A DNA stretch of 17,265 bases from a virus (lineage: Duplodnaviria > Heunggongvirae > Uroviricota > Caudoviricetes), in the IMG/VR virus record IMGVR_UViG_2778261416_000002, positions 1 through 17,265 of that record; one strand, given 5' to 3'. The notes below the pieces were generated by a model, which worked only from the letters and a program-made list of their open reading frames with translations, was not told the DNA's origin and made no database searches. The stretch's first letter is position 1. Each line of letters begins with the position of its first letter. Positions 1 to 17,265 of this stretch are shown here, in pieces. The position numbers and the translations under genes are program-made.

Positions 1-1362
1 ATGTTTAAACCGGAACTCCTTTCCCCGGCGGGAACGCTGAAAAATATGCGTTACGCTTTCGCTTATGGCGCAGATGCTGTTTATGCGGGCCAGCCGCGTT
101 ACTCCCTGCGTGTGCGCAACAACGAATTCAACCACGAAAATCTTCAGCTCGGCATCAATGAAGCCCACGCGCTGGGGAAAAAGTTTTATGTCGTGGTCAA
201 CATTGCACCGCACAACGCCAAGCTGAAAACCTTTATCCGTGACCTGAAACCGGTGGTGGAAATGGGGCCGGATGCGCTGATTATGTCCGATCCAGGGCTG
301 ATTATGCTGGTGCGTGAGCACTTCCCTGAAATGCCGATCCACCTTTCGGTGCAGGCTAACGCCGTGAACTGGGCGACGGTGAAATTCTGGCAGCAAATGG
401 GCCTGACCCGCGTGATCCTCTCTCGCGAGCTGTCGCTGGAAGAGATTGAAGAGATCCGCAATCAGGTGCCGGATATGGAGATCGAGATCTTCGTTCACGG
501 CGCGCTGTGCATGGCCTACTCCGGTCGCTGCCTGCTCTCTGGCTATATCAACAAGCGCGACCCGAACCAGGGCACCTGCACCAACGCCTGCCGCTGGGAG
601 TACAACGTCCAGGAAGGGAAAGAAGATGATGTTGGCAACATCGTACACAAGTACGAGCCGATTCCGGTGCAAAATGTTGAGCCGACGCTGGGTATCGGCG
701 CACCAACCGACAAAGTGTTTATGATCGAAGAGGCCCAGCGTCCGGGCGAGTATATGACCGCGTTTGAAGATGAGCACGGCACTTACATCATGAACTCGAA
801 AGATCTGCGCGCCATCGCCCATGTAGAACGCCTGACCAAAATGGGCGTGCATTCGCTGAAAATCGAAGGCCGTACTAAATCTTTCTACTATTGCGCACGC
901 ACCGCACAGGTTTACCGTAAAGCTATCGATGACGCCGCTGCGGGCAAACCGTTCGATACCAGCCTGCTGGAAACTCTGGAAGGTCTGGCGCATCGTGGCT
1001 ATACCGAAGGTTTCCTTCGTCGTCATACTCACGACGATTATCAGAACTACGAATACGGTTATTCAGTTTCTGACCGCCAGCAGTTTGTTGGTGAGTTTAC
1101 CGGTGAGCGCAAGGGGGACCTCGCAGCGGTAGCGGTGAAAAATAAATTCTCCGTTGGCGACAGCCTTGAGCTGATGACGCCGCAAGGCAACATTAACTTT
1201 ACCCTTGAGCACATGGAAAACGCCAAAGGTGAAGCGATGCCGGTCGCACCAGGCGATGGTTATACTGTGTGGCTCCCGGTCCCGCAGGATCTTGAGCTCA
1301 ATTACGCGCTGCTGATGCGTAATTTCTCCGGGGAAACCACGCGTAACCCCCACGGTAAGTGA
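1..1362 (+). CDS. yegQ: U32-family peptidase-like protein YegQ (TrhP, tRNA 5-hydroxyuridine synthesis)
   Basis: Complete 453-aa ORF starting at window position 1. The sequence matches my recollection of E. coli YegQ, and it sits in the expected position upstream of cyaR. Confidence 0.88.
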   Translation: MFKPELLSPAGTLKNMRYAFAYGADAVYAGQPRYSLRVRNNEFNHENLQLGINEAHALGKKFYVVVNIAPHNAKLKTFIRDLKPVVEMGPDALIMSDPGLIMLVREHFPEMPIHLSVQANAVNWATVKFWQQMGLTRVILSRELSLEEIEEIRNQVPDMEIEIFVHGALCMAYSGRCLLSGYINKRDPNQGTCTNACRWEYNVQEGKEDDVGNIVHKYEPIPVQNVEPTLGIGAPTDKVFMIEEAQRPGEYMTAFEDEHGTYIMNSKDLRAIAHVERLTKMGVHSLKIEGRTKSFYYCARTAQVYRKAIDDAAAGKPFDTSLLETLEGLAHRGYTEGFLRRHTHDDYQNYEYGYSVSDRQQFVGEFTGERKGDLAAVAVKNKFSVGDSLELMTPQGNINFTLEHMENAKGEAMPVAPGDGYTVWLPVPQDLELNYALLMRNFSGETTRNPHGK

Positions 1363-1396
1363 TTAATTTCGATTATTTTTCCCGGATGGAAAATTC

Positions 1397-1440
1397 TTAG
1401 AAACCGATCACATACAGCTGCATTTATTAAGGTTATCATC
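1397..1440 (+). promoter_or_regulatory. cyaR promoter: candidate class II CRP site (ttaga-N6-tcaca, 1397..1412) and -10 hexamer tatcat (1434..1439)
   Basis: The CRP half-site TCACA at 1408..1412 puts the site centre about 42 bp upstream of the predicted cyaR 5' end at 1447. A TATCAT -10 lies 8 nt upstream of that end. CyaR is known to be CRP-activated. Confidence 0.5.
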
Positions 1441-1446
1441 CGTTTC

Positions 1447-1533
1447 GCTGAAAAACATAACCCATAAAATGCTAGCTGTACCAGGAACCACCTCCTTAGC
1501 CTGTGTAATCTCCCTTACACGGGCTTATTTTTT
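1447..1533 (+). ncRNA. cyaR: CyaR (RyeE) Hfq-dependent small RNA
   Basis: The sequence gctgaaaaacataacccataaaatgctagctgtaccaggaaccacctccttagcctgtgtaatctcccttacacgggcttatttttt matches the CyaR sRNA as I recall it. It ends in an intrinsic terminator hairpin (cccttacacggg) plus a T-run. Location between yegQ and a P2-like ogr gene is the known context. Confidence 0.85.
1507..1533. repeat. attL: 27-bp P2 attachment core (aatctcccttacacgggcttatttttt) overlapping the 3' end of cyaR
   Basis: Exact 27-bp direct repeat of 16762..16788. It is the reverse complement of the P2 att core as I recall it (AAAAAATAAGCCCGTGTAAGGGAGATT). Confidence 0.8.
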
Positions 1534-1596
1534 ACGCGTAATACAATGAAATAAAAGGATTTATTTCTGGTCACGTCCACACATTGACCACATCGA

Positions 1597-1622
1597 CAAA
1601 AAAGCCCCTCGACTGAGGGGCT
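1597..1622 (-). terminator. Intrinsic terminator downstream of ogr
   Basis: Stem agcccctc/gaggggct (1603..1610 and 1615..1622, loop gact) followed on the minus strand by a T-run (A-run 1597..1602 on plus). Confidence 0.55.
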
Positions 1623-1634
1623 TCCTGTTTGTAA

Positions 1635-1853
1635 TTACATCCACATAATTTGCTGCCCTGACGGCAACGGGTGCGGCCTTACTGCGTGGACTTCTCCCGG
1701 CTTCACGATGTATCTCTGTACCGACTCATAAGTGATGAACGTGGCGCTGCAATTCACGTTCTGACACTGGTGATAACGCTCTTTTGTCGTGTCAGTGATA
1801 TAGCGGCTTGTACGCGCATGTGCGGCATGCTGGCATAAAGGACAATGAAACAT
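1635..1853 (-). CDS. ogr: Late gene transcriptional activator Ogr (zinc-finger)
   Basis: 72-aa product MFHCPLCQHAAHARTSRYITDTTKERYHQCQNVNCSATF... matches P2 Ogr including the Cys4 zinc-binding pattern. The supplied ORF has a 21-codon upstream extension that I trim to the canonical ATG at 1853. Confidence 0.88.
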   Translation of the reverse strand: MFHCPLCQHAAHARTSRYITDTTKERYHQCQNVNCSATFITYESVQRYIVKPGEVHAVRPHPLPSGQQIMWM

Positions 1854-1934
1854 CGCGAGCACCTCTTCCGGTTTTGTTGATGGTGCCATTTTAGTTAATT
1901 TATCCTTATAAAACAAACAGATAAAATAAAAACA

Positions 1935-3098
1935 TCACTCATCATCTTCTGTTTCGTACTCCACATCAGAAAGCCTGACCTCAAGCTCCAAGGACGTCGT
2001 GAAGCCGCTATTATTCAGAAAATGTGTCACCTTAGTGATTGTCCAGTCCTGCTCGTCTATGACGCGCTTAAAGCCTGACACTTTAACCGGTGTTTCCGTG
2101 TAAATATCAGCACGACCGGTAGCCAGACTGATGGAGAACTCCGCAACGCCCCGTTGCAGCTTATCCCACTTCGCCTGAGCGGCGCGCATGGCCTGTGCTT
2201 TCGTGGCATATACCGTGGTCAGTGCAAAAACGTTGTCAGCCTCACCGGCCATGTATTCACCTTCGCGCGCCTCCGGTACTTTTGGCGCTTTCTTCTGCGT
2301 GACTGGTTTCGCTTTCGGGTGCTCCAGTGCGCGCAGGTGTTTTTCTTTCTTTTTGCGTTTCAGTTTTACCTTCTGCTTTTGCGGCTTCGGGTCTTTGGTG
2401 TGTAACCACTTTGCCGTTACGCCGGTGTAAGCTCCACGGTCAGCAATCGCAAAATGATGACGGTCACCGTCGCTGCGGGTGATGGTAATCTGCGGGATTT
2501 TTTTACCGCTGGCCGTCACCCCCTGCCCCGCTTTGAGAAACAGCAGTTTTCCCATTTTTACCGACACCTCACCGCCGTTGCGTTCAGCAAGGCGGGTCAG
2601 GAATTTTGCATCAGACTCCTGCGACTGGTCGATGTGCGGGATTTTAATTCCGGCCAGTGACGGCGCGACACTGGCTTCCAGCCTGTTACGGGAGGCTATC
2701 GCCTCAACAATCGCACCGAGCGTGGTGTCATGCCATGAGCCTTCACGGCGGGAATTGAGCGTCCCGCGAAAATCTGCACTCCGGGCGCGGATGGTGACCA
2801 CATCCGGCGCGCCCCGGTGTTCAACCTCATCAACGGTGAATTTCCCTTTGCATACCAGGGCAAAACCTTTCCAGCCGATATACACCGTCAGGACAGCGCC
2901 ACGAACCGGCAGCCCGACCTGCCCGTCGGCATCGTTCAGTTCAATATCAAGCTGGTCAGCCTCAAAGCCCCGGTTATCCGTCAGGGTCATACTCATCAGA
3001 CGGTCGCTGATATTGCCGGTAATATCCCTGCTGTCGAGCATCAGCATGTAATCCGGCGTCAGCGTACTGCCTGCATCAAATGTCAGTGCATCCAGCAT
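1935..3098 (-). CDS. D: P2 tail protein D (late control gene D family)
   Basis: 387-aa ORF whose sequence and length match P2 gpD. Its ATG overlaps the U stop codon (TAATG) and it lies immediately upstream of ogr as in P2. Confidence 0.88.
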   Translation of the reverse strand: MLDALTFDAGSTLTPDYMLMLDSRDITGNISDRLMSMTLTDNRGFEADQLDIELNDADGQVGLPVRGAVLTVYIGWKGFALVCKGKFTVDEVEHRGAPDVVTIRARSADFRGTLNSRREGSWHDTTLGAIVEAIASRNRLEASVAPSLAGIKIPHIDQSQESDAKFLTRLAERNGGEVSVKMGKLLFLKAGQGVTASGKKIPQITITRSDGDRHHFAIADRGAYTGVTAKWLHTKDPKPQKQKVKLKRKKKEKHLRALEHPKAKPVTQKKAPKVPEAREGEYMAGEADNVFALTTVYATKAQAMRAAQAKWDKLQRGVAEFSISLATGRADIYTETPVKVSGFKRVIDEQDWTITKVTHFLNNSGFTTSLELEVRLSDVEYETEDDE

Positions 3099-3577
3099 TA
3101 TCCCGCCCCCGTCATACCCGTGAATCTGGTCGCCATACTGCCAGCTTTACCGATGAGCGATTCCGCCTGTTTACCGATATCGCCATAAAGCGCGGCCAGT
3201 GATTCATCAACGCGGGTGAGCGACAGCGTAAAATCAATTTTCCGGGGTGTGCCGTCTGCAAAGAAAATACTCCCTGTTTCACTCACCCTGCTGATGACAT
3301 ACATGCCGTAAATCATGCCGATGCCATCCAGCAACGGCCACGCCCGGCCTTCCTCTGCCATCAGCCTGAGCGTGGTCATCGTCAGCTTTCCGCCGGTCAG
3401 TTCGGGATAAAGCACACCGGCAAGCGTGATGTTTTCCTCGCCAACGCCGAGAAACTGGTAGGCATCCCGTTTACCGATACGGGAATTTGACGGCCAGCGA
3501 TAATCTGATTCACGCTGCATGGTCTGGTGTGGCAGCGTCTGGCGCATAAAAACAAACATACCTAACGCGAGCATCAT
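3098..3577 (-). CDS. U: P2 tail protein U
   Basis: 159-aa ORF between the T C-terminus and D, as in P2. Strong Shine-Dalgarno AGGAGGTGA 6 nt upstream of the ATG. Confidence 0.85.
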   Translation of the reverse strand: MMLALGMFVFMRQTLPHQTMQRESDYRWPSNSRIGKRDAYQFLGVGEENITLAGVLYPELTGGKLTMTTLRLMAEEGRAWPLLDGIGMIYGMYVISRVSETGSIFFADGTPRKIDFTLSLTRVDESLAALYGDIGKQAESLIGKAGSMATRFTGMTGAG

Positions 3578-3591
3578 TTTTCGTCACCTCC

Positions 3592-4911
3592 TTAACCGTC
3601 ATGCATCATGCTGGCACGGGCGCGCGCACGTTTATCCCGCTCGTATTTTTCGAGCGCATCCTGTAACTGGCGGTCAAGCTGTGTCCCCGGCGCAGTACCA
3701 CCCGTCAGGCTGATGTGATATTCGTTTTTACTCTGGTCCACATAAGAGCGGCCAGCCGGTGCCGTAACCGGCTGATAAGCCTGATAGTCTGCATAAGAGC
3801 TGGTCGCCGGAATATAACCACCGCTGCCATACGTGGCGGCTTGAGTTCTGGCGGCGGTCTGGTCAAGTGTGTCTGACTCTTTGTTGATAACACCGAGTTT
3901 TTCCAGTACCCAGTCAATTCCGCTGCGCAGTTTGTTGAACGCATTAAGCGGCAGCATCAGCGCGTCAGCCAGTGCCTGCCCGAACATGACGCCAGTATCA
4001 CGGCAACGGTTCAGGGTGTCCTGGGTGGCTTTGACCGGGGCAATCAGGTTTTTAAACCACTGCCACGCGGCCTGTAACTTTTCGCCCAGCCAGTCAAACA
4101 CCGGCTTAAGTGGCGTGAACAGTTCCCCCACCGGCGCAAATGCCGCTTTCAGCCCTTCCATCACACCGCCAAAGAATGCGCTGACAGGCTCCCAGTATTT
4201 ACGGATAAGCAACGCCCCGGCGACAATGGCGGCCACCACGGCCACAATCAGGTTGTTGGTCGCATCCATCACCAGTGCGTCAAGGCTGGCATAATCACCG
4301 CCCTTACCCACGCGGATAACCTCAGAGGTCGTGTGACCTTCCTCGTCAGTGACCTTGCTCATCACGCGCGCCGGGGCTTCATTGCGGTATTTCTGCAGCC
4401 AGCCGACCGCCACATCCTGCAGCATCGGATTGCTGCTGCGGTCAGAGGTTTCGGCACGCCTCACGCCGTTAAAACCGGCCATGATGAAATCAAGGGACTG
4501 GCGTTTGATAATGGCGTTACGGACACGGAGCTGGAAATCCTGATAACGCGCCCACAGGTCCAGCGTTTTGTAGCGGATATAAAAATCGAAGTTAATCTGG
4601 TCGCATTCGTACTTGTTTGACGCCAGCTTCGAGAAGTCCTTCGGCTGACGCTCGGTGCCACCGGCGGTGTCGGTGGTGCTGGCGATGGAGCCGGTGACAC
4701 CGATGCCAATTTTTTCCCCTTTCATTTCGCTGACCGGCACAATGTTGATGCGGGTCAGAAAGTCAGAGGACTCCTGCATGGTGTTCATCAGGGTCTGGGT
4801 GACCGACGGTTCAACGGTGAATTTTTTCGACACATCACCGGCGTCGATGCCGTTCAGTTCGGCAACACGGGACAGGTAGGCATTAAATTTAAAGCGGGTT
4901 TCCTGGCGCAT
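3592..4911 (-). CDS. Chimeric ORF: N-terminal ~222 aa of major capsid protein gpN fused in frame to C-terminal ~217 aa of tail tape measure protein gpT (deletion derivative)
   Basis: The N-terminus MRQETRFKFNAYLSRVAELNG... up to ...DALVMDATNNLI matches P2 gpN as I recall it, but the ORF is 439 aa where gpN is 357 aa. The C-terminal part has hydrophobic helices (VAVVAAIVAGALLI...) and ends immediately upstream of U, the position of the T 3' end. gpO lies directly upstream. The junction is near nt 4246. Confidence 0.7.
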   Translation of the reverse strand: MRQETRFKFNAYLSRVAELNGIDAGDVSKKFTVEPSVTQTLMNTMQESSDFLTRINIVPVSEMKGEKIGIGVTGSIASTTDTAGGTERQPKDFSKLASNKYECDQINFDFYIRYKTLDLWARYQDFQLRVRNAIIKRQSLDFIMAGFNGVRRAETSDRSSNPMLQDVAVGWLQKYRNEAPARVMSKVTDEEGHTTSEVIRVGKGGDYASLDALVMDATNNLIVAVVAAIVAGALLIRKYWEPVSAFFGGVMEGLKAAFAPVGELFTPLKPVFDWLGEKLQAAWQWFKNLIAPVKATQDTLNRCRDTGVMFGQALADALMLPLNAFNKLRSGIDWVLEKLGVINKESDTLDQTAARTQAATYGSGGYIPATSSYADYQAYQPVTAPAGRSYVDQSKNEYHISLTGGTAPGTQLDRQLQDALEKYERDKRARARASMMHDG

Positions 4912-4969
4912 AGTTTTTCCTGAAATTAAGGGTTAATCGTGAAGGTTTTCCCGGACTGACTGACGCCGG

Positions 4970-5824
4970 TCAGCAGTTCGTCATCAGGGCGTCACCGCCA
5001 CCACCGTTGGCCTTGCTGCGGCGCTGCTGGGTCAGACTTTCGGTGTGGTCGAGACTGTTTTTCAGGCGGGTGAATGCCTGGCTGGTTTCATCCGCCCTGT
5101 CAGTCACATCCTGCTTAAGGGCGGAAAAAGCGGTTTCCATCTCAGCGAGGCGCTGCTCAGTGGCGCTCAGTTTTTCCTGCACATGTTCAGCAACAGCGGT
5201 CACCGCTTCATGCACGTCATTCAGACGGGCGTCATCGCTGGCCTGTTTGCGGCCAAAAATGGACTTCACCTTTTCGGTCAGGGCGGTGAACACGGTTTCA
5301 GGCAGGTCTTCAAATTCCAGCTCAACGGGCGTTGCCACTGAAATCAGGTTTTCAGGGCTTAATTTGAAGCGGTTCAGGGGGTTGTGTTTTGCCGTGCGGC
5401 AGAATTCCAGGTATTCCGTGCCGAGGCTTGCCGGGTCATCGGTGACGGCCAGACCCACCAGATAACATTTGCCGGTATTGGCAAAGTTCGGCTGAATTTC
5501 CATTGAGGTATAGACCTTCTGCGCGGCCTTGTTCATCGCGATAAGGTCATCGGTCGGGGTGATTTTCGCAAACAGCGCCCATTTGCCTTTCAGCGCCGAA
5601 TCATCGTCAATCTTTTCGGCCTTCAGTTCGGCCACATCGCCATAACGCTTAAAAATACCGTCAGGCAGGATGCCTCGCAGATGTTCCAGGTTAATGCGGC
5701 AACCATAGACTCGCGGGTCAAAGGTTTCGGCCATTTCCTGAATATCCTGCGCACTGATGACACGCCCGTCACAGGTGTCACCCTCTACGCCGATACGAAA
5801 GAATTTTGAGACTTTTTTTGCCAT
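4970..5824 (-). CDS. O: Capsid scaffolding protein gpO
   Basis: 284-aa product beginning MAKKVSKFFRIGVEGDTCDGRV... matches P2 gpO. The supplied ORF extends 22 codons further upstream; I trim to the canonical ATG at 5824. Confidence 0.88.
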   Translation of the reverse strand: MAKKVSKFFRIGVEGDTCDGRVISAQDIQEMAETFDPRVYGCRINLEHLRGILPDGIFKRYGDVAELKAEKIDDDSALKGKWALFAKITPTDDLIAMNKAAQKVYTSMEIQPNFANTGKCYLVGLAVTDDPASLGTEYLEFCRTAKHNPLNRFKLSPENLISVATPVELEFEDLPETVFTALTEKVKSIFGRKQASDDARLNDVHEAVTAVAEHVQEKLSATEQRLAEMETAFSALKQDVTDRADETSQAFTRLKNSLDHTESLTQQRRSKANGGGGDALMTNC

Positions 5825-5997
5825 TGTCAGGAGTCCTGAATAGTGATTAGAGGAGTCACATGTCGGCATCAGTTTCCCGACGATGCGCATCCTCCGCCAT
5901 CAGTCCCGGATGGCTTATCACTGACACAACAGCACCTTAGCGAATCGCGGGGCGCGACTCAGTAGCCTTGCCGTGTATTCATCACGGCGAGGTATTC

Positions 5998-7770
5998 ATG
6001 ACCATCACCACAGACACCACTCTTTTACACGACCCGCGTCGTCAGGCGGCGCTGCTGTACTGGCAGGGATTTTCCGTGCCGCAGATTGCCGCCATGTTGC
6101 AGATGAAACGCCCGACGGTGCAGAGCTGGAAACAGCGCGACGGCTGGGACAGCGTTGCCCCCATCAGCCGTGTCGAAATGAGTCTGGAAGCGCGGCTGAC
6201 CCAGCTCATCATCAAACCGCAGAAAACCGGCGGTGACTTCAAGGAAATTGACCTGCTCGGACGCCAGATTGAACGACTGGCACGGGTCAACCGTTACAGT
6301 CAGACCGGCAACGAGGCAGACCTTAATCCGAACGTCGCTAACCGCAACAAAGGCGGGCGGCGCAAACCGAAAAAGAATTTTTTCAGTGACGAGGCCATCG
6401 AAAAGCTGGAGCAGATTTTCTTTGAGCAGTCTTTCGAATATCAGTTGCACTGGTATCGCGCCGGGCTTGAGCACCGCATCCGCGATATCCTGAAATCCCG
6501 CCAGATTGGCGCGACGTTTTATTTTTCCCGCGAGGCGCTGCTGCGCGCCCTGAAAACAGGTCATAACCAGATTTTTCTGTCGGCCAGTAAAACGCAGGCG
6601 TATGTGTTCCGCGAATACATCATCGCCTTTGCCCGGCTGGTTGACGTTGACCTGACCGGTGACCCGATTGTCCTGGGCAATAACGGCGCAAAACTGATTT
6701 TTCTCGGCACCAACTCCAACACCGCGCAGAGCCATAACGGCGACCTGTACGTCGATGAGATTTTCTGGATCCCGAATTTTCAGGTACTGCGTAAGGTGGC
6801 ATCAGGTATGGCCTCACAGAGTCACCTGCGCTCGACCTATTTCTCCACCCCGTCCACGCTGGCGCACGACGCCTACCCGTTCTGGTCGGGTGAACTGTTC
6901 AACCGGGGACGCGCCAGCGCCGCCGAACGCGTGGAAATCGACGTCAGTCATAATGCCCTTGCCGGTGGGCTTCTCTGTGCGGACGGTCAGTGGCGGCAGA
7001 TTGTCACCATTGAGGACGCCCTGAAAGGCGGCTGCACACTGTTCGACATTGAGCAGCTCAAACGCGAAAACAGCGCCGACGATTTTAAAAACCTGTTCAT
7101 GTGTGAATTTGTTGACGACAAGGCGTCGGTATTCCCGTTCGAGGAGCTGCAACGCTGCATGGTCGACACGCTGGAAGAATGGGAAGACTATGCGCCGTTT
7201 GCCGCCAATCCGTTCGGCTCCCGCCCGGTATGGATTGGTTACGACCCGTCACACCGTGGCGACAGCGCCGGATGCGTGGTGCTGGCACCGCCGGTGGTGG
7301 CCGGTGGCAAATTCAGAATACTTGAGCGTCACCAGTGGAAAGGCATGGACTTTGCCACCCAGGCGGAATCCATCCGCAAACTCACCGAAAAATACAACGT
7401 CGAATACATCGGAATTGATGCCACCGGCCTCGGTGTCGGCGTGTTCCAGCTCGTGCGCTCGTTCTATCCCGCCGCGCGCGACATCCGCTACACGCCGGAA
7501 ATGAAAACCGCAATGGTGCTCAAGGCAAAAGACGTTATCCGCCGTGGCTGTCTGGAATATGACGTCAGCGCCACCGACATCACCAGCTCGTTTATGGCTA
7601 TCCGCAAGACCATGACCAGCAGCGGACGCAGCGCCACCTATGAGGCCAGCCGCAGCGAGGAAGCCAGCCACGCCGACCTCGCATGGGCGACCATGCACGC
7701 CCTGTTAAATGAGCCACTCACCGCCGGTATCAGCACCCCGCTGACATCCACCATTCTGGAGTTTTACTGA
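5998..7770 (+). CDS. P: Terminase ATPase (large) subunit gpP
   Basis: 590-aa product beginning MTITTDTTLLHDPRRQAALLYWQGFSVPQIA... matches P2 gpP. The supplied ORF begins at a TTG at 5968; the ATG at 5998 has a GAGG Shine-Dalgarno 5 nt upstream. Divergent from O, as in P2. Confidence 0.88.
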   Translation: MTITTDTTLLHDPRRQAALLYWQGFSVPQIAAMLQMKRPTVQSWKQRDGWDSVAPISRVEMSLEARLTQLIIKPQKTGGDFKEIDLLGRQIERLARVNRYSQTGNEADLNPNVANRNKGGRRKPKKNFFSDEAIEKLEQIFFEQSFEYQLHWYRAGLEHRIRDILKSRQIGATFYFSREALLRALKTGHNQIFLSASKTQAYVFREYIIAFARLVDVDLTGDPIVLGNNGAKLIFLGTNSNTAQSHNGDLYVDEIFWIPNFQVLRKVASGMASQSHLRSTYFSTPSTLAHDAYPFWSGELFNRGRASAAERVEIDVSHNALAGGLLCADGQWRQIVTIEDALKGGCTLFDIEQLKRENSADDFKNLFMCEFVDDKASVFPFEELQRCMVDTLEEWEDYAPFAANPFGSRPVWIGYDPSHRGDSAGCVVLAPPVVAGGKFRILERHQWKGMDFATQAESIRKLTEKYNVEYIGIDATGLGVGVFQLVRSFYPAARDIRYTPEMKTAMVLKAKDVIRRGCLEYDVSATDITSSFMAIRKTMTSSGRSATYEASRSEEASHADLAWATMHALLNEPLTAGISTPLTSTILEFY

Positions 7771-8804
7771 TGAGCAAGAAAAAAGGGAAAACACCGCAAC
7801 CTGCGGCAAAAAAAATGACCGCCAGCGCCCTGAAAATGGAGGCATTCACCTTTGGTGAGCCGGTGCCGGTACTCGACCGCCGTGACATTCTGGATTACGT
7901 CGAGTGCATCAGTAACGGCAGATGGTATGAGCCACCGGTCAGCTTTACCGGTCTGGCAAAAAGCCTGCGTGCTGCCGTGCATCACAGCTCACCGATTTAC
8001 GTTAAACGCAATATTCTGGCCTCGACATTTATCCCGCATCCGTGGCTTTCTCAGCAGGATTTTAGCCGCTTTGTACTGGATTTTCTGGTGTTCGGTAATG
8101 CGTTTCTGGAAAAGCGTTACAGCACCACCGGTAAGGTCATCAGACTGGAAACCTCACCGGCAAAATATACCCGCCGTGGTGTGGAAGAGGATGTTTACTG
8201 GTGGGTGCCGTCCTTCAACGAGCCGACACCTTTCACGCCCGGCTCCGTGTTTCACCTGCTGGAGCCGGATATTAATCAGGAGCTGTACGGCCTGCCGGAA
8301 TATCTCAGCGCCCTTAATTCTGCCTGGCTGAATGAGTCGGCCACGCTGTTCCGCCGCAAGTATTACGAAAACGGCGCACATGCCGGATACATCATGTACG
8401 TCACTGATGCCGTGCAGGATCGCAACGATATCGAAATGCTTCGCGAAAACATGGTTAAGTCGAAAGGCCGCAACAACTTTAAAAACCTGTTTCTCTATGC
8501 CCCGCAGGGGAAAGCTGACGGCATTAAAATTATCCCGCTCAGTGAAGTGGCAACGAAGGACGATTTTTTTAATATCAAAAAAGCCAGCGCCGCTGACCTG
8601 CTGGACGCACACCGCATCCCCTTTCAGTTGATGGGCGGCAAGCCGGAGAACGTCGGGTCGCTGGGTGATATTGAGAAAGTGGCAAAGGTCTTTGTCCGCA
8701 ATGAGCTTATCCCGTTACAGGACAGGATCCGCGAGATAAACGGCTGGCTCGGTCAGGAGGTCATCCGCTTTAAAAACTACTCACTGGACACTGACAACGG
8801 CTGA
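7770..8804 (+). CDS. Q: Portal (capsid portal vertex) protein gpQ
   Basis: 344-aa product matching P2 gpQ in sequence and length. Its start overlaps the P stop (TGATG). It is transcribed toward cos, as in P2. Confidence 0.88.
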   Translation: MSKKKGKTPQPAAKKMTASALKMEAFTFGEPVPVLDRRDILDYVECISNGRWYEPPVSFTGLAKSLRAAVHHSSPIYVKRNILASTFIPHPWLSQQDFSRFVLDFLVFGNAFLEKRYSTTGKVIRLETSPAKYTRRGVEEDVYWWVPSFNEPTPFTPGSVFHLLEPDINQELYGLPEYLSALNSAWLNESATLFRRKYYENGAHAGYIMYVTDAVQDRNDIEMLRENMVKSKGRNNFKNLFLYAPQGKADGIKIIPLSEVATKDDFFNIKKASAADLLDAHRIPFQLMGGKPENVGSLGDIEKVAKVFVRNELIPLQDRIREINGWLGQEVIRFKNYSLDTDNG

Positions 8805-8808
8805 ACAT

Positions 8809-8830
8809 CGCCGCCTGCGGGCGGCTTTTT
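8809..8830 (+). terminator. Intrinsic terminator downstream of Q
   Basis: GC stem gccgcc/ggcggc with loop tgcg, followed by tttttt (8825..8830). Confidence 0.6.
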
Positions 8831-8965
8831 TACACCCCGCCCTCACACGCTCACCACCGCACAAAACATCCCGCAGACACACCAACGCCCCGGCGAACAA
8901 TCTAAACGCCATCACGACGCGCTCAGACGCTGAAAAAATAAAATCAGCACTACCGCCAGCGCGCA

Positions 8966-8984
8966 GTGCTTTCCCCGCCTCGCC
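8966..8984. other. cos site: 19-nt cohesive-end sequence of P2 (gtgctttccccgcctcgcc, reverse complement of GGCGAGGCGGGGAAAGCAC)
   Basis: Exact match to the P2 19-nt cohesive end as I recall it, in the expected position just past the 3' end of Q. Confidence 0.8.
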
Positions 8985-9008
8985 CGCCCGCTTCATGAGA
9001 CGGTTTTA

Positions 9009-10721
9009 ATGCAGTTGCATTATGTCCCGCTCCTCAGTGCTGCGCTCCATCCTGATTACAAAAACCGTTATCAAAAACACATGCAAATAGACGCAGTCAA
9101 ATGCGCTACCGCCTCTCGCAATACCTTCAATTTCATGATAAAAAACATCATCCCTAACAAGAGCATTATCCTCATGAAAAAAGTATATGAACTAACCAGT
9201 GAAGAAGCACTGTCATATTTTCTTCGCCATGACTCCTACACAACCTTAGAATTACCGGCTTATATTAATTTCACCACATTATTAAATGATATTAATTCAT
9301 CTATCCATAACAAAAAAATTAAAATTGAACCAACCGCCAAGGAGCTGATGGGTAAAGATATCAATTATGAGGTGCTTGTCAGTAAAGATGGTCTATATAG
9401 CTGGCGTAGGATAACACTTATCAATCCCCTTTATTATGTCTACTTCTGTAGAAAAATCACAGCACCAGCAACCTGGGAAATCATAACAGAAAAATTCAAA
9501 TCTTTTGAATCAAACGACCTTTTTACATGTTCAAGCATCCCCGTCAGAAAAGACAACTCGTCAAACATTGCTGCATCTGTAATGAATTGGTGGGAAGATT
9601 TTGAACAAAAAAGCCTTGCCCTTGCTCTTGAATACGAATTCATGTTCAGCACTGACATCTCAAACTTCTACCCATCAATATATACTCATAGTTTTGAATG
9701 GGTATTCATATCAAAAGAAGAGGCAAAGAAGAAAAAAAGCAAAAATAACCCAGGAGGATTAATTGACAGCCACATTCAAATGATGATGAACAACCAGACA
9801 AATGGTATTCCACTCGGCAGCACATTGATGGATACATTTGCTGAGCTTATCTTGGGTCAAATCGATATAGAATTAAGAAAAAAAACTAACGAACTCAAAA
9901 TAATAAACTACAAGGTAGTACGCTATCGTGATGATTACCGGATCTTCTCTAATAGCAAAGATGATTTAGACATAATATCAAAATGTTTAGTCAATGTATT
10001 GGGCGATTTTGGTTTAGATCTAAACTCAAAAAAAACTGAACTATATGAAGACATCATACTTCATTCGTTGAAACAAGCTAAAAAAGACTACATCAAAGAA
10101 AAAAGACATAAGTCACTCCAGAAAATGCTCTATTCAATATATTTATTTTCACTTAAACATCCAAACTCGAAAACAACCGTTAGATATCTAAATGATTTTC
10201 TTAGGAATTTATTTAAGCGAAAGACAATTAAAGATAACGGCCAACAGGTTGATGCTATGCTTGGTATTATTTCAAGCATCATGGCAAAAAACCCTACAAC
10301 GTACCCAGTAGGAACGGCAATTTTCTCAAAACTCCTCAGTTTTCTTTATGGTGATGACACCCAAAAAAAATTAACAAAGCTAGAACAACTCCATAAAAAA
10401 CTGGATAAACAACCCAATACAGAAATGCTTGACATATGGTTTCAGCGAACTCAAGCAAAAATAAACCTAGAGTGGGATAAATCTTATAAGTCAGCTCTAT
10501 GCGTCCGTATAAATGATGAACTCACAAAAGAGAAAACATTTTCTGTAAATAATTTATGGAATATTGACTGGATCCAAGGAAAAGAAACAAGCCCCAATAA
10601 AGCCAAAATATTATCCTTGCTAAGAAAAACAAAAATCGTTGACACAGATAAATTTGATAAAATGGATGAAAATATAACACCTGAAGAAGTTAATCTATTC
10701 TTTAAAGAGCACAGCAATTAA
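9009..10721 (+). CDS. Reverse transcriptase, stand-alone defence-associated type (Abi-P2 / UG-Abi-like) with a C-terminal helical extension
   Basis: RT motif A FSTDISNFYPSI (about 9645..9680), motif B NGIPLGSTLMDTFAELIL (9801..9854) and motif C VRYRDDY (9918..9938). The ORF is strongly AT-rich compared with flanking phage genes and sits in the cos-to-A variable locus. The true start may be an internal ATG at 9135 or 9174; the latter has aagag about 10 nt upstream. Confidence 0.8.
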   Translation: MQLHYVPLLSAALHPDYKNRYQKHMQIDAVKCATASRNTFNFMIKNIIPNKSIILMKKVYELTSEEALSYFLRHDSYTTLELPAYINFTTLLNDINSSIHNKKIKIEPTAKELMGKDINYEVLVSKDGLYSWRRITLINPLYYVYFCRKITAPATWEIITEKFKSFESNDLFTCSSIPVRKDNSSNIAASVMNWWEDFEQKSLALALEYEFMFSTDISNFYPSIYTHSFEWVFISKEEAKKKKSKNNPGGLIDSHIQMMMNNQTNGIPLGSTLMDTFAELILGQIDIELRKKTNELKIINYKVVRYRDDYRIFSNSKDDLDIISKCLVNVLGDFGLDLNSKKTELYEDIILHSLKQAKKDYIKEKRHKSLQKMLYSIYLFSLKHPNSKTTVRYLNDFLRNLFKRKTIKDNGQQVDAMLGIISSIMAKNPTTYPVGTAIFSKLLSFLYGDDTQKKLTKLEQLHKKLDKQPNTEMLDIWFQRTQAKINLEWDKSYKSALCVRINDELTKEKTFSVNNLWNIDWIQGKETSPNKAKILSLLRKTKIVDTDKFDKMDENITPEEVNLFFKEHSN

Positions 10722-10730
10722 TATCCCAAA

Positions 10731-10760
10731 GCCATGTTAGTAACATAACATGGCTTTTTT
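10731..10760 (+). terminator. Intrinsic terminator downstream of the RT gene (possibly bidirectional with convergent gene A)
   Basis: Hairpin gccatgtt-agtaacat-aacatggc followed by tttttt (10755..10760), 10 nt after the RT stop codon. Confidence 0.6.
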
Positions 10761-10824
10761 AAATCACTCATTATCAGTTATCAAGAACGAACATAACATT
10801 CTATTCCGAGGAGTTAAATTATCA

Positions 10825-13110
10825 TTAGATCCACTTAATATCCGTTATATCCTCCAGCCACTCCTCATCTACCAGATAGGTGAATTTTTTCCCGTCATAA
10901 TTTACGGTTGCTCCACGCGCCAGCGCCTCAAGCTCCCATCGCTGCGGCCTGATACCGTTCTGAGCGAGGTCAACGCGGATACGGGTAATTTGCATTCGTT
11001 CCGACCGGGTCAGTCTGGCCGATGGTGCCATTTCATACTGTTTTAACGGGCTTCCGTTTCTCTGCTGACGATTTGGTGTTCTCAGTCCGCATTTTAATGC
11101 ACCTCTGAGCGCCCTCACAACCTCCGGGTCACTCCATTCGATAACACCGTCATCAACCAGATTAAGCACTGCTGCGGCGTGTTCAGAAGGTGTGGGAGCC
11201 GGTAACGAAGTATCACCACCGGTGAGCTTTCCACAGTTATTGACAGGACTCCGAGGCGCGGCGATGCCGCTTTTTAAAGTCAAAGGCTCAACGACCGGCA
11301 CTTTCGGAACAATGCGCCAGTCCGTCGTTCTGGTGATATGAATATGACGCGCGCCGAGATGCGGCGCGTAAATGCCGACCACTCTCTCGACTTCTTCCTC
11401 GTACTCGTTAACTTCATCCGACGGACTACGGGCGACCCTGACAGTCTGACAATCGCGCGGGACATTTGCCCCACCCTGCGCGCTGATATACAGCGCAAAA
11501 TCGCCACTGTCTGCGGCAGCGCGTGCAGCCTCGACGCGTTCGTCAAACTCATCAGCAATGCTGACGCCGCGAGGTAATTTGCGTAGTTCACGGTAAGCCC
11601 CCATTGTCGGCAGGCCAACCGTTTTAAATTGCGGAATGCGCCACGTTGACGCCCATGCGGTAACAGCCGCGGCAGTGTCTTTCAGCGGCCTGCCGGTGTC
11701 GTTATCGAGCTGACCATCCAGTGCATAGCCGTCGATGTTTTTTGAAATGTATTTCGCGATATACCCCGCAGCACCGCCCCGGTTAAGGTGTTTTGCCTGA
11801 AAACGGTTTCGCGCGGCTCCTCTTTCGTCGCCATCCTCTTTGAGCGCATAGCGACGCATGATTTCGATAATCTGGTTACGCTGGCGCGGATTACAAAAAA
11901 GCATCATATGCCAGTGCGGCGTTCCGTCGTGGTGTGGCTCGACGACACGCAAACCGTAGACCTGTAAATCATTATCCTTGAATGCCGTGCGCATCAGGCT
12001 CCAGATACGGCAGAGATAACGCTGCGCATCCTTTGGATTAAATGCCTCATCGTTCCAGCCGTGATTTAGCTGGACGGTTTTACTTTCGCCTTTTCTGACC
12101 TGACGTGTCGGGTGATACTTTGACGGCGCGGTCAGCGTGATAAACATCCCCACATCACCCTCTGCTGCGGCGTAACGCTCAATACCGGCAATGGTGTTCA
12201 TCAGCTCCATCCGGCGAATTTCAGGATTAGAAATACTGCCCATCACCTTACTGATAAGGTCGATGCGCTCGCCGGTTTCCCTGTTTTCAAGGTCACACGA
12301 TTTAAGAAATTCCAGATTTGCCTGGCGGCGCGCACGCACATCACGAATGGCATGTTTACTGGCATAAGGAGAACGGTCTTTATTGACCTCCCCGACAGCT
12401 ATCAGTAACGCTTCATGCCAGCGCATACGCTGGCCTTTAAGCTGATGAGTCCACCACTCATCGTTAAACAGACGGGCAATGGCAGAATATGCCTGCCTCG
12501 TGGTCATCTGTCCTTTACGGTATTTTTTCCAGTAGAGCGGGGAAATATTGAAAGCACGTGCAGCGCCAGCAACATGACCATACAGGTGAGCCTGCGCCTC
12601 ATCCGTAAACAGCGATTCTTTTTCACCATGCGCATCAACCCATGCATCACAGAGTTCCTCATACATCATGAAAAGCTGCGATGAGATACGGGCGGCAAAC
12701 TTTTTCAGCTCCTTGTCATTCATTCCCGGCAGGCGCGCATAGTGATCACGCTCTGCCAGAAACAGCAACGACGCGTCGGTGTTCATTTCATGGCGCTGAT
12801 TCACACGCTCAATGCGCGGCCATAAACGACGCTGAAAAGTAGATGTGAGGAAATAAAACCCGTGCACCGGGCTTTTATTGCGCCGGATGTAGTCATAGCG
12901 TGAAGTAAACAGCGAGCGCAAAAAGTAAGGCAGGCGGTTAATCGTGGATAAAACACCTTGCACCTGACGCATCTCGTCACGTGTAAGAGGTCTTTCGCGC
13001 CCGACAGCCTCGCGTGGCGCGTTCCATGCATAAGCACCGGTAAACGCCTTACCGGTGCCTGCGGTAAATGCTGACGGAGGGACAAAACGCCCGGAGGCTT
13101 TAACGGCCAT
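10825..13110 (-). CDS. A: Replication initiation protein gpA (rolling-circle endonuclease)
   Basis: 761-aa product beginning MAVKASGRFVPPSAFTAG... matches P2 gpA in length and N-terminus. It contains the HxH-type motif region (PHWHMMLF) and tyrosine-rich region typical of the family. The supplied ORF begins at an upstream TTG; I trim to the ATG at 13110. Confidence 0.88.
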   Translation of the reverse strand: MAVKASGRFVPPSAFTAGTGKAFTGAYAWNAPREAVGRERPLTRDEMRQVQGVLSTINRLPYFLRSLFTSRYDYIRRNKSPVHGFYFLTSTFQRRLWPRIERVNQRHEMNTDASLLFLAERDHYARLPGMNDKELKKFAARISSQLFMMYEELCDAWVDAHGEKESLFTDEAQAHLYGHVAGAARAFNISPLYWKKYRKGQMTTRQAYSAIARLFNDEWWTHQLKGQRMRWHEALLIAVGEVNKDRSPYASKHAIRDVRARRQANLEFLKSCDLENRETGERIDLISKVMGSISNPEIRRMELMNTIAGIERYAAAEGDVGMFITLTAPSKYHPTRQVRKGESKTVQLNHGWNDEAFNPKDAQRYLCRIWSLMRTAFKDNDLQVYGLRVVEPHHDGTPHWHMMLFCNPRQRNQIIEIMRRYALKEDGDERGAARNRFQAKHLNRGGAAGYIAKYISKNIDGYALDGQLDNDTGRPLKDTAAAVTAWASTWRIPQFKTVGLPTMGAYRELRKLPRGVSIADEFDERVEAARAAADSGDFALYISAQGGANVPRDCQTVRVARSPSDEVNEYEEEVERVVGIYAPHLGARHIHITRTTDWRIVPKVPVVEPLTLKSGIAAPRSPVNNCGKLTGGDTSLPAPTPSEHAAAVLNLVDDGVIEWSDPEVVRALRGALKCGLRTPNRQQRNGSPLKQYEMAPSARLTRSERMQITRIRVDLAQNGIRPQRWELEALARGATVNYDGKKFTYLVDEEWLEDITDIKWI

Positions 13111-13375
13111 ATGAGCCAAAAGCCTCTGAACAACGCTTGCTGAGTTGCTCAACCTGCGCGTTTAAATCAGCAAAAGATTTTGCGCTTCCGGTCAGAATAT
13201 CGTGATGCATCAGGCCGGAAACGAGCTGGCCTAATTTCGGGTAATAACCAACCACCGCCAGCCATTCCTGACCGGCGTTTTTACCGCTTTCCGCTCTCTT
13301 TTTCTCGTGGAGAATAAACTGAAAGCTGTCACTGGTAACGACATAACGTTCGCCAATTTCAATACGAATACTCAT
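13100..13375 (-). CDS. P2 Orf83-like small early protein (function unknown)
   Basis: 91-aa ORF in the orf83 position immediately upstream of A. Its ATG overlaps the preceding stop (ATGA), with a GGAGAA Shine-Dalgarno. Confidence 0.65.
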   Translation of the reverse strand: MSIRIEIGERYVVTSDSFQFILHEKKRAESGKNAGQEWLAVVGYYPKLGQLVSGLMHHDILTGSAKSFADLNAQVEQLSKRCSEAFGSYGR

Positions 13376-13596
13376 GCCGTTCTCCGGTAATGTTTGTTTT
13401 TTGCTTCAAAGACTGACTGACAGGAAACACAACGCGTGGCTGACGGATAAGCCGCACGACGGGCAGCAGGTATTGGCGCGTCACACTCTTCGCAAACCAG
13501 CGCAGAAACACCGCAATGTTTTACCCTTGCCGCGTTAATCTGGCGCTCCAGTAATTCAGCCTGTTGTTCCTGAATAAAATCCACGTTGTCCGGCAT
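13372..13596 (-). CDS. P2 Orf82-like C4 zinc-finger protein (TraR/DksA family)
   Basis: 74-aa ORF with a CxxC...CxxC pattern (CEECDAPIPAARR...CVSCQ) characteristic of TraR/DksA-type zinc fingers, in the orf82 position. Confidence 0.7.
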   Translation of the reverse strand: MPDNVDFIQEQQAELLERQINAARVKHCGVSALVCEECDAPIPAARRAAYPSATRCVSCQSVFEAKNKHYRRTA

Positions 13597-13898
13597 TACC
13601 AGCTCCTTTTGTCGTTCAGCTTCTTAAATTCATCAGCGCAATAACTGGCGAGTTCTGTCGTTAATTTTGTCAGTTCATCCACTGAGGAAATTTGCTTGTG
13701 GAATACAGCGCGTTTAACAAGTAAATTGACCACATCAGACAGGAGGTTTAATTCACTCTGATAAATCGCGATAACAGATTCAGTTATTTCGCGCTTCTCT
13801 TTATCAATACCAAGTTGAATAAGAGACAAATCACCATTTTTCATAACGGCGATTTTTAAGGCGTTATTCAGTAATACAACCGAACGAGAACAGGACAT
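13596..13898 (-). CDS. P2 Orf81-like small early protein (function unknown)
   Basis: 100-aa ORF from the ATG at 13898, which overlaps the orf80 stop (ATGA). The supplied ORF starts one codon earlier at a TTG. Confidence 0.65.
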   Translation of the reverse strand: MSCSRSVVLLNNALKIAVMKNGDLSLIQLGIDKEKREITESVIAIYQSELNLLSDVVNLLVKRAVFHKQISSVDELTKLTTELASYCADEFKKLNDKRSW

Positions 13899-14122
13899 CA
13901 AAGCACCTCCCCGCGAGACAATCCGATATTGTGAAATTTTTCCGACTCCTGACTGAGCAGCTCAACTATCTCCACGCGGGATAACTCCGCCTTTGTGATG
14001 TGGCGAATCATGGCGTCAAGATGAGAAGAAAAGCGCGTCGCAGCGTCGGCCTGTGCTTCGGTTCTGGCCTGTTGCAGCAGTAATGCGTATTTACCGCACT
14101 GATTTTCAGAAACTGTATGCAT
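13898..14122 (-). CDS. P2 Orf80-like small early protein (function unknown)
   Basis: 74-aa ORF with a GGAGAAAG Shine-Dalgarno upstream of the ATG, in the early operon between B and orf81. Confidence 0.65.
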
Positions 14123-14185
14123 GACTTTCTCCAGGCAAAAAGAAGCCCCGCACGATTAAGTGCGTTAAAAACTCTGGTTAATTAC

Positions 14186-14686
14186 TTAATGCAGATATTG
14201 CTCTGGTTTTACCGACGTCAGAATTGTCGGTGCATACTCAAACAGGCTGAATAATTCACGTAATGCACGGAATAAAGCATCACGCCAGTAACATGACTCT
14301 TCATTAATTCGCCAGTATGGCTGGTTAAATTCTTTTTCAGTCAATCCGGCATGCATAAATAAAGTACGACGCTGACTGACTGTTAAAAAACTAATATATG
14401 CATACTCACTTGCACCGACCTGACGACGTTTTGAGAATGCCCCACGCAATTCATCAATTGCACATACCAGTCGTTCACGTTCGACGTCGTTCATTTCTTC
14501 AAAACGCATCGTTGCGTGACGCTGTTTTAACTGCGCATGAAAGCAAACTGTTAGCCGTTCGCGCTCCATCATCTGATTATAATAATCACATGTATCCTGC
14601 CAGCGAGGAACGGCAAGATGCTTACCAATTATCCGGCGCATAGCTGCTGGCTGTTTTTCAACGAGATTGAGCGTCATCACTGTCAT
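14186..14686 (-). CDS. B: Replication protein gpB (helicase loader-like)
   Basis: 166-aa product MTVMTLNLVEKQPAAMRRIIGKHLAVPRWQDTCDYYNQMMERERL... matches P2 gpB. A GGAGGG Shine-Dalgarno is optimally spaced for the ATG at 14686 rather than the one at 14692. Confidence 0.85.
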   Translation of the reverse strand: MTVMTLNLVEKQPAAMRRIIGKHLAVPRWQDTCDYYNQMMERERLTVCFHAQLKQRHATMRFEEMNDVERERLVCAIDELRGAFSKRRQVGASEYAYISFLTVSQRRTLFMHAGLTEKEFNQPYWRINEESCYWRDALFRALRELFSLFEYAPTILTSVKPEQYLH

Positions 14687-14853
14687 TTCCATACCCTCCG
14701 GCTTTTCAGAAAGGTCAGAGCCTTTTTTAACGGACTCTGTTTTTTGGTGCGGATAATGATTCCCTTACGCCCCTTACCGTGGGTGATGGTGAAGTCAATC
14801 GCCCTGGGGCTTTCGTTACGCAGTAACTGAGCAATACAACGAGGCTCATTCAT
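14683..14853 (-). CDS. P2 Orf78-like small protein (function unknown)
   Basis: 56-aa ORF with a perfect AAGGAGA Shine-Dalgarno 5 nt upstream of the ATG at 14853. Its stop overlaps the B start (ATGA). The supplied ORF begins at an upstream GTG. Confidence 0.6.
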   Translation of the reverse strand: MNEPRCIAQLLRNESPRAIDFTITHGKGRKGIIIRTKKQSPLKKALTFLKSRRVWK

Positions 14854-14863
14854 ACGGTTCTCC

Positions 14864-15139
14864 TTAACGTGGTTCACCGAGACCTAACCACATCAACCAG
14901 CCGTCACGAATCTCTTTAGGTCGGCTTTCATAAGCCAGTTTTAGTCCGTTATTCCATGCCGGAAGGTATACCCAATATTCACCTGCACGACCTGAAGCTG
15001 ATTGTGGATCGGTCATATCAATTACAGGCAGCTTTCCTTTATCGATCATCCGACGAACCGCTCCTGTCGATTTTCCTATTAGTTTTGCGAACTCCTGATA
15101 AGGAATCGCATCAGTCATGAGTGTTACTTGCTTGCTCAT
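14864..15139 (-). CDS. cox: Cox protein (excisionase and repressor of Pc; directionality factor)
   Basis: 91-aa product MSKQVTLMTDAIPYQEFAKLIGKSTGAVRRMIDKGKLPVIDMTD... matches P2 Cox. It is divergent from C and first gene of the early operon. Confidence 0.88.
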   Translation of the reverse strand: MSKQVTLMTDAIPYQEFAKLIGKSTGAVRRMIDKGKLPVIDMTDPQSASGRAGEYWVYLPAWNNGLKLAYESRPKEIRDGWLMWLGLGEPR

Positions 15140-15149
15140 GTCGTCCTCT

Positions 15150-15260
15150 AGCCCTCATGAATTGCGTTTAATGTCTTATAATGCCTTTTAGTGCCCACAT
15201 CCAAGCACTAAACAATCTACATCTAAACTAAATACTATTGAGATCTAAACACCATGTCAA
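15150..15260. promoter_or_regulatory. Immunity switch region: candidate Pc (-10 tataat 15177..15182, plus strand), candidate Pe (-35 ttgaca and -10 tagtat on minus strand, plus-strand coordinates 15255..15260 and 15233..15238), and two 8-bp direct-repeat C operators atctaaac (15221..15228, 15243..15250)
   Basis: Hexamers are read directly from the sequence; the Pe spacer is 16 bp. The two direct repeats are 22 bp centre to centre and flank the Pe -10, as described for P2 C repressor operators O1/O2. Predicted Pe and Pc transcripts would converge and overlap. Confidence 0.55.
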
Positions 15261-16947: not shown

Positions 16948-17265
16948 TCACTCTCCACATTTGAATGTCAGACGAGCGACACCATGTAATCCTACACCTT
17001 CTGTCTTCAGCTCAACTATTTGCATTTTTTTGCCCTGAGTAACACAGAAATGAGTTGCATCATTTTTTACTATATTTTCTGCACCAGATATTCTGCCCCT
17101 GGCTAAAGAAGCTTCGGCTTCGGTGTAGTATTGGTTATCGAGTTTACGCTGAATATTACTTTTATATGCAAGACCAAATTTACCGATACTTGTCTCATCA
17201 TTATGCACAGCACAACCAGACATAATAAAAATACTAATTAATGATATAGCAGCTATCTTTTTCAT
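16948..17265 (-). CDS. yegR: Small lipoprotein YegR-like (signal peptide with lipobox, function unknown)
   Basis: Complete 105-aa ORF whose ATG is the last three bases of the window. The N-terminus MKKIAAISLISIFIMSGC has a signal peptide and lipobox cysteine. Position after the cyaR-linked P2-like element matches E. coli yegR. Confidence 0.7.
   Translation of the reverse strand: MKKIAAISLISIFIMSGCAVHNDETSIGKFGLAYKSNIQRKLDNQYYTEAEASLARGRISGAENIVKNDATHFCVTQGKKMQIVELKTEGVGLHGVARLTFKCGE

Follow-up and report, generated by a model that had tools for sequence, protein, structure and literature searches.

Class 1 Abi polymerases and the P2 defence hotspot

Abi-P2 has been known since 2006, and a crystal structure is available for the protein from prophage P2-EC30 (PDB 7R08). 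The P2-EC30 protein has a reverse transcriptase (RT)-like palm and fingers, no thumb, and a C-terminal alpha-helical solenoid (Figiel et al., 2022; PMC9508834). It forms trimers, and in the crystal these are packed as dimers of trimers, potentially hexamers (PMC9508834). The protein makes single-stranded DNA (ssDNA) with neither a template nor a primer, giving products of ~40 nt and of >100 nt (PMC9508834). DNA synthesis is abolished by the Y61F substitution and unaffected by Y46F, and Tyr61 is therefore regarded as the priming residue and the synthesis as protein-primed (PMC9508834). Passages in two later papers that draw on Odegrip et al. (2006) state that the P2-EC30 gene, orf570, excludes phage T5 and confers >10^7-fold resistance in E. 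coli (PMC8632793; PMC9226505), and the first of these passages adds that deletion of the YRDD region abolishes T5 resistance (PMC8632793). The same passage states that Abi-P2 “has demonstrated reverse transcriptase activity”, and the title of the 2006 paper speaks of a “functional reverse transcriptase”. The term misdescribes the published in vitro activity, which is template-independent. AbiP2 is classed as a stand-alone class 1 protein (Mestre et al., 2022; PMC9226505). Unlike AbiP2, class 2 DRTs depend on a non-coding RNA (ncRNA).

Several other systems share this chemistry. AbiK from Lactococcus and AbiA are, like Abi-P2, class 1 UG/Abi proteins in which an RT-like domain is combined with a helical one, and both produce protein-primed, untemplated ssDNA and act by abortive infection. 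They differ from Abi-P2 in that AbiK forms hexamers and is primed from Tyr44, AbiA forms dimers and has a HEPN domain, and the genes of both are found on plasmids of Gram-positive bacteria. DRT4 (UG15) and DRT6 (UG12), likewise class 1 systems with a single gene, produce random ssDNA by protein priming, and DRT4 acts on T5 by abortive infection. With DRT4, the protein-primed ssDNA is shortened by the host exonuclease ExoI; during T5 infection, the phage protein ORF55 binds the 3' ends and blocks ExoI, and toxic ssDNA accumulates. ORF55 also activates DRT6. The priming tyrosine of DRT4 is located in the palm, unlike that of Abi-P2, and the ORF55/ExoI trigger has been shown for DRT4 and DRT6 but not for Abi-P2.

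In the reference phage P2, the gpA-gpQ locus is the position of old and tin, and it is a defence hotspot for which 1,650 gene arrangements have been described (Rousset et al., 2022; PMC9122126). The old/tin/orf91 cassette of P2 occupies the same gpA-gpQ/cos hotspot as abi-P2 and has the same role, the exclusion of other phages. Its proteins, the OLD ATPase-TOPRIM nuclease and Tin, are unrelated to Abi-P2, and their targets are lambda and the T-even phages. In a survey from 2026, AbiP2 is one of the systems present in P2 and absent from P4 (PMC13586616).

Identification of the gene as abi-P2

The locus described here lies in a 17,265-nucleotide stretch of viral DNA (Caudoviricetes; IMG/VR record IMGVR_UViG_2778261416_000002, positions 1 to 17,265), which is referred to as the window. 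By its sequence, the gene is abi-P2, a stand-alone class 1 UG/Abi “reverse transcriptase” that was first described as P2-EC30 orf570. A search of solved structures matched PDB 7R08 at 539/541 residues (99.6% identity). At the DNA level, the P2-EC30 entry in GenBank (AM157365, “ORF570”, CAJ43154) is 99.7% identical over 1,897 bases, non-coding flanks included. In essence, then, both loci have one and the same gene, placed identically between cos and A and bordered by the same non-coding DNA. They differ by two substitutions in 546 residues, D490N and E554D (window vs EC30, ORF570 numbering), both of which fall in the C-terminal helical domain, and by an internal deletion in the prophage of the window.

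In a profile search against the PADLOC defence library, the AbiP2 model came first (E = 1e-161, 537 bits), aligned over 484 positions (4-487 of 489). The runners-up were Drt6 (1e-44), UG14 (4e-42) and Drt4 (1e-39), while AbiK matched at 2e-29 only. DRT4 and DRT6, which give the next-best PADLOC matches, are distant in sequence (E = 1e-45 to 1e-37 vs 1e-161 for AbiP2). The Pfam model RVT_1 matched residues 197-355 with 40.8 bits, above its cutoff of 29.6. The original prediction of a single-gene RT of the Abi-P2/UG-Abi kind, as opposed to a retron or a group II intron, is borne out by the AbiP2 match and by the identity to 7R08.

Tyr85, Tyr306 and the YRDD aspartates can all be read in the translation, all catalytic residues are kept, and the frame is fully intact. 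The YRDD motif fits the Y(R/V)DD active site given for the class (PMC8632793), and its Tyr306 corresponds to Tyr282 in the numbering of Figiel et al. (PMC9508834). The priming tyrosine of the fingers loop is present as Tyr85 of ORF570, which is Tyr61 in the 546-aa numbering of Figiel et al. and would be Tyr30 if translation starts at 9174. Replacement of the thumb by a C-terminal alpha-helical (alphaRep/solenoid) domain is expected from the 539/541 identity to 7R08. Among 5,426 complete E. coli genomes, 11 have the same gene (98.5-99.9% identity), and in each of them it is chromosomal.

Taken with the published work on the near-identical protein, the sequence makes it very probable that the gene encodes an Abi-P2 that excludes T5 and acts as a protein-primed polymerase. 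The original prediction had treated the gene as a variant whose target range and mechanism could not be predicted. This does not hold, because the protein is close to the type member, for which the biochemistry has been published (PMC9508834) and T5 exclusion is stated in the passage cited above (PMC8632793). Gene, locus, phenotype, structure and in vitro chemistry are all already in print, and what the window encodes is not a variant but the known protein itself.

Position and composition of the gene

The coordinates of the features are summarized in Table 1.

Table 1. Features of the abi-P2 locus and its neighbours, in window coordinates
Feature	Coordinates	Strand	Remarks
Terminase gene P	5968..7770
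Portal gene Q	7770..8804	+	Own terminator hairpin, 8810-8825
Presumed P2 cos, 19-base cohesive-end sequence GTGCTTTCCCCGCCTCGCC	8966..8984	read on +	Direct reading
Maximal open frame, “ORF570” (historical P2-EC30 name)	9009..10721	+	570 codons
Variable cargo segment	9021..10853		~1.83 kb; left edge 9021-9027, right edge 10846-10853
Candidate extended -10 element TGATAAAAA	9136..9144	+	Putative; weak -35 at 9115-9121
Shine-Dalgarno-like AAGAG, weak	9159..9163	+	10 nt before ATG 9174
Likely abi-P2 coding sequence	9174..10721	+	515 aa, starts MKKVYELT
Priming-tyrosine codon	9261..9263	+	Within PAYINF, residues 83-88
RT motif A region FSTDISNFYPSI	9645..9680	+	Residues 213-224; Asp is Asp216; inside RVT_1 match
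RT motif B region NGIPLGSTLMDTFAELIL	9801..9854	+	Residues 265-282; read in translation
RT motif C VRYRDDY	9918..9938	+	Residues 304-310; YRDD at 306-309, Asp308/Asp309 catalytic
Intrinsic terminator	10728..10760	+	Perfect 12-bp stem AAAGCCATGTTA/TAACATGGCTTT, 6-nt loop, T run
Replication gene A (replication endonuclease)	10825..13110	-	Convergent with abi-P2; maximal ORF to 13152

Much of what had been read from the DNA of this locus at the outset stands. RT motifs A, B and C all occur in the ORF with the sequences that had been given for them. The gene had been described as AT-rich, and the composition of the window agrees, with 31-37% GC in the gene vs 51-58% on either side. By segment, GC is 0.43 at 9028-9173, 0.33 at 9174-10721 and 0.32 at 10722-10845, and the flanks have 0.53-0.58; by gene, Q and A both have 0.53 and abi-P2 has 0.33. 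An intact 1.7-kb frame at 33% GC is far beyond what chance could plausibly explain. The proposed convergence with A and the presence of a terminator belonging to the gene itself were also upheld, with A on the minus strand and a hairpin at 10728..10757, 7 nt past the stop codon. This hairpin has a dG of -16.2 kcal/mol (z = -6.4), which none of 200 shuffled sequences equalled. It was found by folding and with a repeat finder, and is absent from the list given by a simple consensus scan.

Start codon and leader

Three starts are in use for this frame: the maximal frame opens at 9009, while the protein begins at Met25 (9081, 546 aa) in GenBank and in the structural studies, and at Met56 (9174, 515 aa) in PGAP/RefSeq. 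The span 9009-10721 of the original prediction is correct as the maximal open frame and is probably too long as a coding sequence, whose true start is most likely the ATG at 9174, 165 nt downstream of 9009. This start is preferred because relatives align, and the crystal is ordered, only from there. In 7R08, residues 32-541 (546-aa numbering) are visible, and order begins exactly at the methionine of 9174. The alignment to the PADLOC AbiP2 profile begins at residue 56. PGAP/RefSeq places the start at 9174 in Combat13F7 and FT130, and chose the corresponding position in pro147. The pro147/P2-EC58 protein (70% identity) can be aligned only from MKK(I/V)YELT; upstream of MKK, the DNA of pro147 differs from that of the window by indels (3 and 14 nt), and the peptides it would encode there are unrelated to those of the window. 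In contigs of Entomohabitans and Martelella (72-77% identity), the frame ahead of the same ATGAAAAA is interrupted by stop codons at distances of 9 and 12 codons. The scan of genome contigs yielded three close relatives; the family-wide survey of gene context is that of Mestre et al. (2022; PMC9226505). A conserved coding extension at the N-terminus was considered on account of a tblastn alignment with pro147 that begins at residue 13, and was ruled out by the indels, the unrelated peptides and the stop codons of the relatives.

A weak Shine-Dalgarno-like sequence precedes the ATG at 9174 (Table 1), and the in-frame ATGs at 9081 and 9135 have none. In our own scan, TGATAAAAA was the top-scoring promoter-like element upstream of 9174, a match at the level of consensus only. 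It reads TGATAGAAA in pro147/P2-EC58 and is among the few conserved stretches of an otherwise diverged leader. No strong consensus promoter was found upstream of the gene. The simple consensus scan that did not list the terminator gave 7 promoter-like sites vs 6.8 in shuffled sequence. The native protein may begin at 9174, with Tyr30 as its native priming residue. If this start is true, the 31 N-terminal residues of the published constructs would be translated leader and promoter sequence.

The cos-proximal cargo

The 19-base sequence GTGCTTTCCCCGCCTCGCC, predicted earlier as cos, occurs at exactly the positions given for it, and we take it to be P2 cos (the reverse complement of the P2 cohesive end). 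This stretch is conserved in pro147. The match to other P2-like phages ends at ~9020-9027 and resumes at 10846. Comparison with isolateD, whose cargo is another one, places the edges at 9022 and 10854, and divergence from pro147 begins at 9021. Since homology breaks at these edges, the exchanged segment is taken to be ~1.83 kb in length. The cargo begins ~36 bases past cos and, at its other end, takes in the final ~7 codons of A. The claim that the ORF lies between cos and the 3' end of A, in the slot of old and tin in P2, was confirmed, and the slot is the gpA-gpQ hotspot (PMC9122126).

Within the cargo (9021-10853), abi-P2 is the sole gene. It had been suggested that the gene has neither a partner ORF nor a structured ncRNA, and the cargo indeed contains no other plausible ORF; the ncRNA part is taken up with the RNA-dependent readings below. 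An ORF at 10750..11046 (+) was considered as a partner and is not credible, as it runs antisense into gene A. A search for direct and inverted repeats as integration scars at the cargo edges gave only a 12-nt imperfect direct repeat (10715-10726/10832-10843), which lies near the two convergent stops and is too short to interpret.

The variant of the gene in P2-EC58 and pro147 (orf544) has ~70% protein identity to the present one throughout from the MKK start, and is found in the same hotspot with the same orientation to cos and A. These phages also have additional cargo: a small ORF separates the RT from A, and a type IV retron RT is encoded on the Q side of cos. Most of their leader differs from that of the window. 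In pro147, the retron RT (PADLOC RT_IV, 3e-163) is on the Q side of cos and the Abi-P2 variant on the A side.

The host prophage

The prophage is situated between yegQ/trhP (1..1362) and yegR (16948..17265). Its left end carries ogr, D and U, and its right end int, C and cox. Window positions 1..4247 match the tape-measure side of isolateD and positions 4235..9022 match the capsid side, with a 13-bp overlap at the junction. Because the isolateD matches meet at the junction with this overlap, the ORF at 3592..4911 (-) is read as a fused gene in which the ~225 N-terminal residues of capsid protein N continue in frame into the ~218 C-terminal residues of tape measure T. In this ORF, the Pfam capsid model is covered at positions 1-210 of 327 only. 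By the standard gene order of P2, the tail, baseplate, lysis and small-terminase genes between N and T are missing here. From its gene content, the prophage is judged to be defective and no longer able to make virions.

Other prophages at the same site show a range of states. In isolateD the internal deletion is FII'-M' and the hotspot is filled by another cargo; in FT130 the deletion is D'-P', with abi-P2 retained; and the prophage of Combat13F7 appears complete and includes abi-P2.

Proposed mode of action and alternative readings

In the scheme proposed here, abi-P2 would be transcribed in the prophage from a dedicated promoter within the cargo and translated from the ATG at 9174; expression is assumed, because the host prophage is defective. 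In the uninfected cell, the ssDNA adduct of Abi-P2 would stay short or harmless. On infection by T5, a phage factor would let the ssDNA product accumulate or act, and the outcome would be death of the infected cell or a block of the phage cycle (abortive infection), to the benefit of the lysogen population and the prophage. A candidate trigger, by analogy with Sak for AbiK and T5 ORF55 for DRT4/DRT6, would be a protein that binds ssDNA or ssDNA 3' ends. The full DRT4/DRT6-style switch, with ExoI trimming the product in healthy cells and ORF55 shielding it on T5 infection, is a tentative extension of the same analogy and somewhat doubtful.

A different view of the chemistry is that Abi-P2 is a genuine RNA-templated RT in vivo, which would copy host, phage or its own RNA into cDNA, with untemplated synthesis as an in vitro side activity. 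The intact RT motifs, the use of RNA templates by several related DRT systems and the RT activity credited to Abi-P2 in the passage cited above (PMC8632793) would agree with such a role, but it is improbable: the purified protein makes DNA without template or primer and requires its priming tyrosine to do so (PMC9508834), it has no thumb subdomain with which to hold a duplex (PMC9508834), no conserved structured RNA adjoins the gene, and none of its closest relatives (AbiK, AbiA, DRT4 and DRT6) uses a template.

The proposed scheme of protein-primed abortive infection also presupposes a working gene. The gene might instead be intact yet without function in a prophage undergoing decay, giving neither expression nor protection in its native strain, as the loss of about half of the late genes and the weak promoter signals could suggest. 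This is decidedly improbable, given that the frame is intact with all catalytic residues kept, that a 98.5-99.9% identical gene is retained in the 11 E. coli genomes, and that the FT130 prophage still has the gene despite a different internal deletion. The pattern of retention fits selection on the gene rather than on the phage.

A retron, a group II intron or an ncRNA-dependent DRT (DRT2/DRT9/DRT10-like) with an overlooked RNA partner is scarcely credible; the generic RVT_1 match, the only one from Pfam, and the ~150 nt of non-coding cargo before the likely start codon would allow for it, but a search of Rfam on both strands of 8500..11300 matched no family at E <= 1, folding of the leader (8985-9180) does not stand out from that of shuffled sequence (z = -1.59, with 16 of 200 shuffles as good), relatives with 72-77% protein identity do not share the sequence upstream of the gene, and the literature classes AbiP2 as stand-alone class 1 (PMC9226505). 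A retron was rejected, as neither an msr/msd RNA (Rfam, E <= 1) nor a retron-clade RT was found, the best 25 PADLOC matches listed being DRT/UG/Abi or generic RT models. A group II intron was also rejected: no intron RNA was matched in Rfam at E <= 1, the top maturase match in the PDB reached E = 0.045 only, and the 7R08 structure has no thumb.

Implications for the Abi-P2 family

With either the start at 9174 or ORF55-type switching, the locus would still belong to a known type of system, and the question that the family poses, how untemplated ssDNA stops T5, is not advanced by the sequence of this copy. The value of the result is a correct annotation: a near-exact copy of the type Abi-P2, its likely start codon, and its survival in a defective prophage. 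Abi-P2 intact inside such a prophage is one more case of a defence gene outliving its phage.

Translation start of abi-P2

The 55 codons at 9009..9173, from which the maximal reading frame of the stand-alone reverse transcriptase (RT)-like defence gene abi-P2 takes its name of "ORF570", are probably untranslated. The published structural construct, Abi-P2 of P2-EC30, begins at 9081 and includes 31 extra residues with no ordered structure in the crystal and no counterpart in homologues; the published numbers are therefore probably shifted, with Tyr61 and Tyr282 each being 31 off relative to the native protein.

Surroundings of Abi-P2 and its relatives

An Abi-P2 homologue with 72% identity is found in Entomohabitans teleogrylli where, as for abi-P2 in the window, it sits between a portal-sized ORF and an ORF of gene A size (756 aa). 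Two extra ORFs flank this homologue, and neither had a match in PADLOC. A further homologue, which shares 71-77% identity with the protein of E. coli, is divided between two contig ends (L007 and L008) of an assembly named as Martelella alba, an alphaproteobacterium, which could reflect either horizontal transfer or assembly contamination.

In phage pro147, two unrelated RT-based systems flank cos, since a retron RT lies on the portal side and a 70%-identical Abi-P2 variant lies on the gene A side. In both pro147 and P2-EC58, a small hypothetical ORF (ORF34 / ORF85) separates the Abi-P2 variant from gene A; the window has no such ORF. An imperfect 12-nt direct repeat (CAATTAATATCC at 10715..10726 and CACTTAATATCC at 10832..10843) brackets the terminator region in the window. 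Its first copy is at the abi-P2 stop codon, and its second falls just within gene A at the 3' end, near the point where the variable segment ends on the right. This repeat may have been left behind when recombination exchanged the cargo, or may have arisen by chance.

Features of the window prophage and the comparison loci
Feature	Location	Strand	Description
N::T fusion ORF	window 3592..4911	-	deletion junction at 4235..4247
Type IV retron RT, pro147	L005 1..1031	-	PADLOC RT_IV, E = 3e-163; portal side of cos
Extra ORF, 178 aa, E. teleogrylli	L009 2392..2928	+	flanks Abi-P2 homologue
Extra ORF, 160 aa, E. teleogrylli	L009 4591..5073	-	flanks Abi-P2 homologue
E. coli isolateD prophage			FII'-M' deletion; hotspot holds different cargo of four to five genes
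FT130 prophage			D'-P' deletion; abi-P2 still present
Combat13F7 prophage			looks complete; abi-P2 present

Prophage decay and retention of the cargo

The P2-like prophage of the window is defective. An internal deletion with 13-bp microhomology at its junction has joined, in frame, the N-terminal ~225 residues of the major capsid protein N to the C-terminal ~218 residues of the tape measure protein T, and the capsid model (Pfam) matches the fusion ORF over model positions 1-210 of 327 only. Judged by the usual order of genes in P2, the window lacks those that lie between N and T, namely the genes for tail, baseplate, lysis, head completion and small terminase.

The prophages of E. coli isolateD, FT130 and Combat13F7 all occupy the same chromosomal site, yegQ/trhP-yegR, and the pattern of decay differs between prophages there. 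The early region, cos and the cargo of the hotspot (the variable segment between portal gene Q/cos and replication gene A) are kept in every one of these three. Such retention is consistent with domestication of the defence gene.
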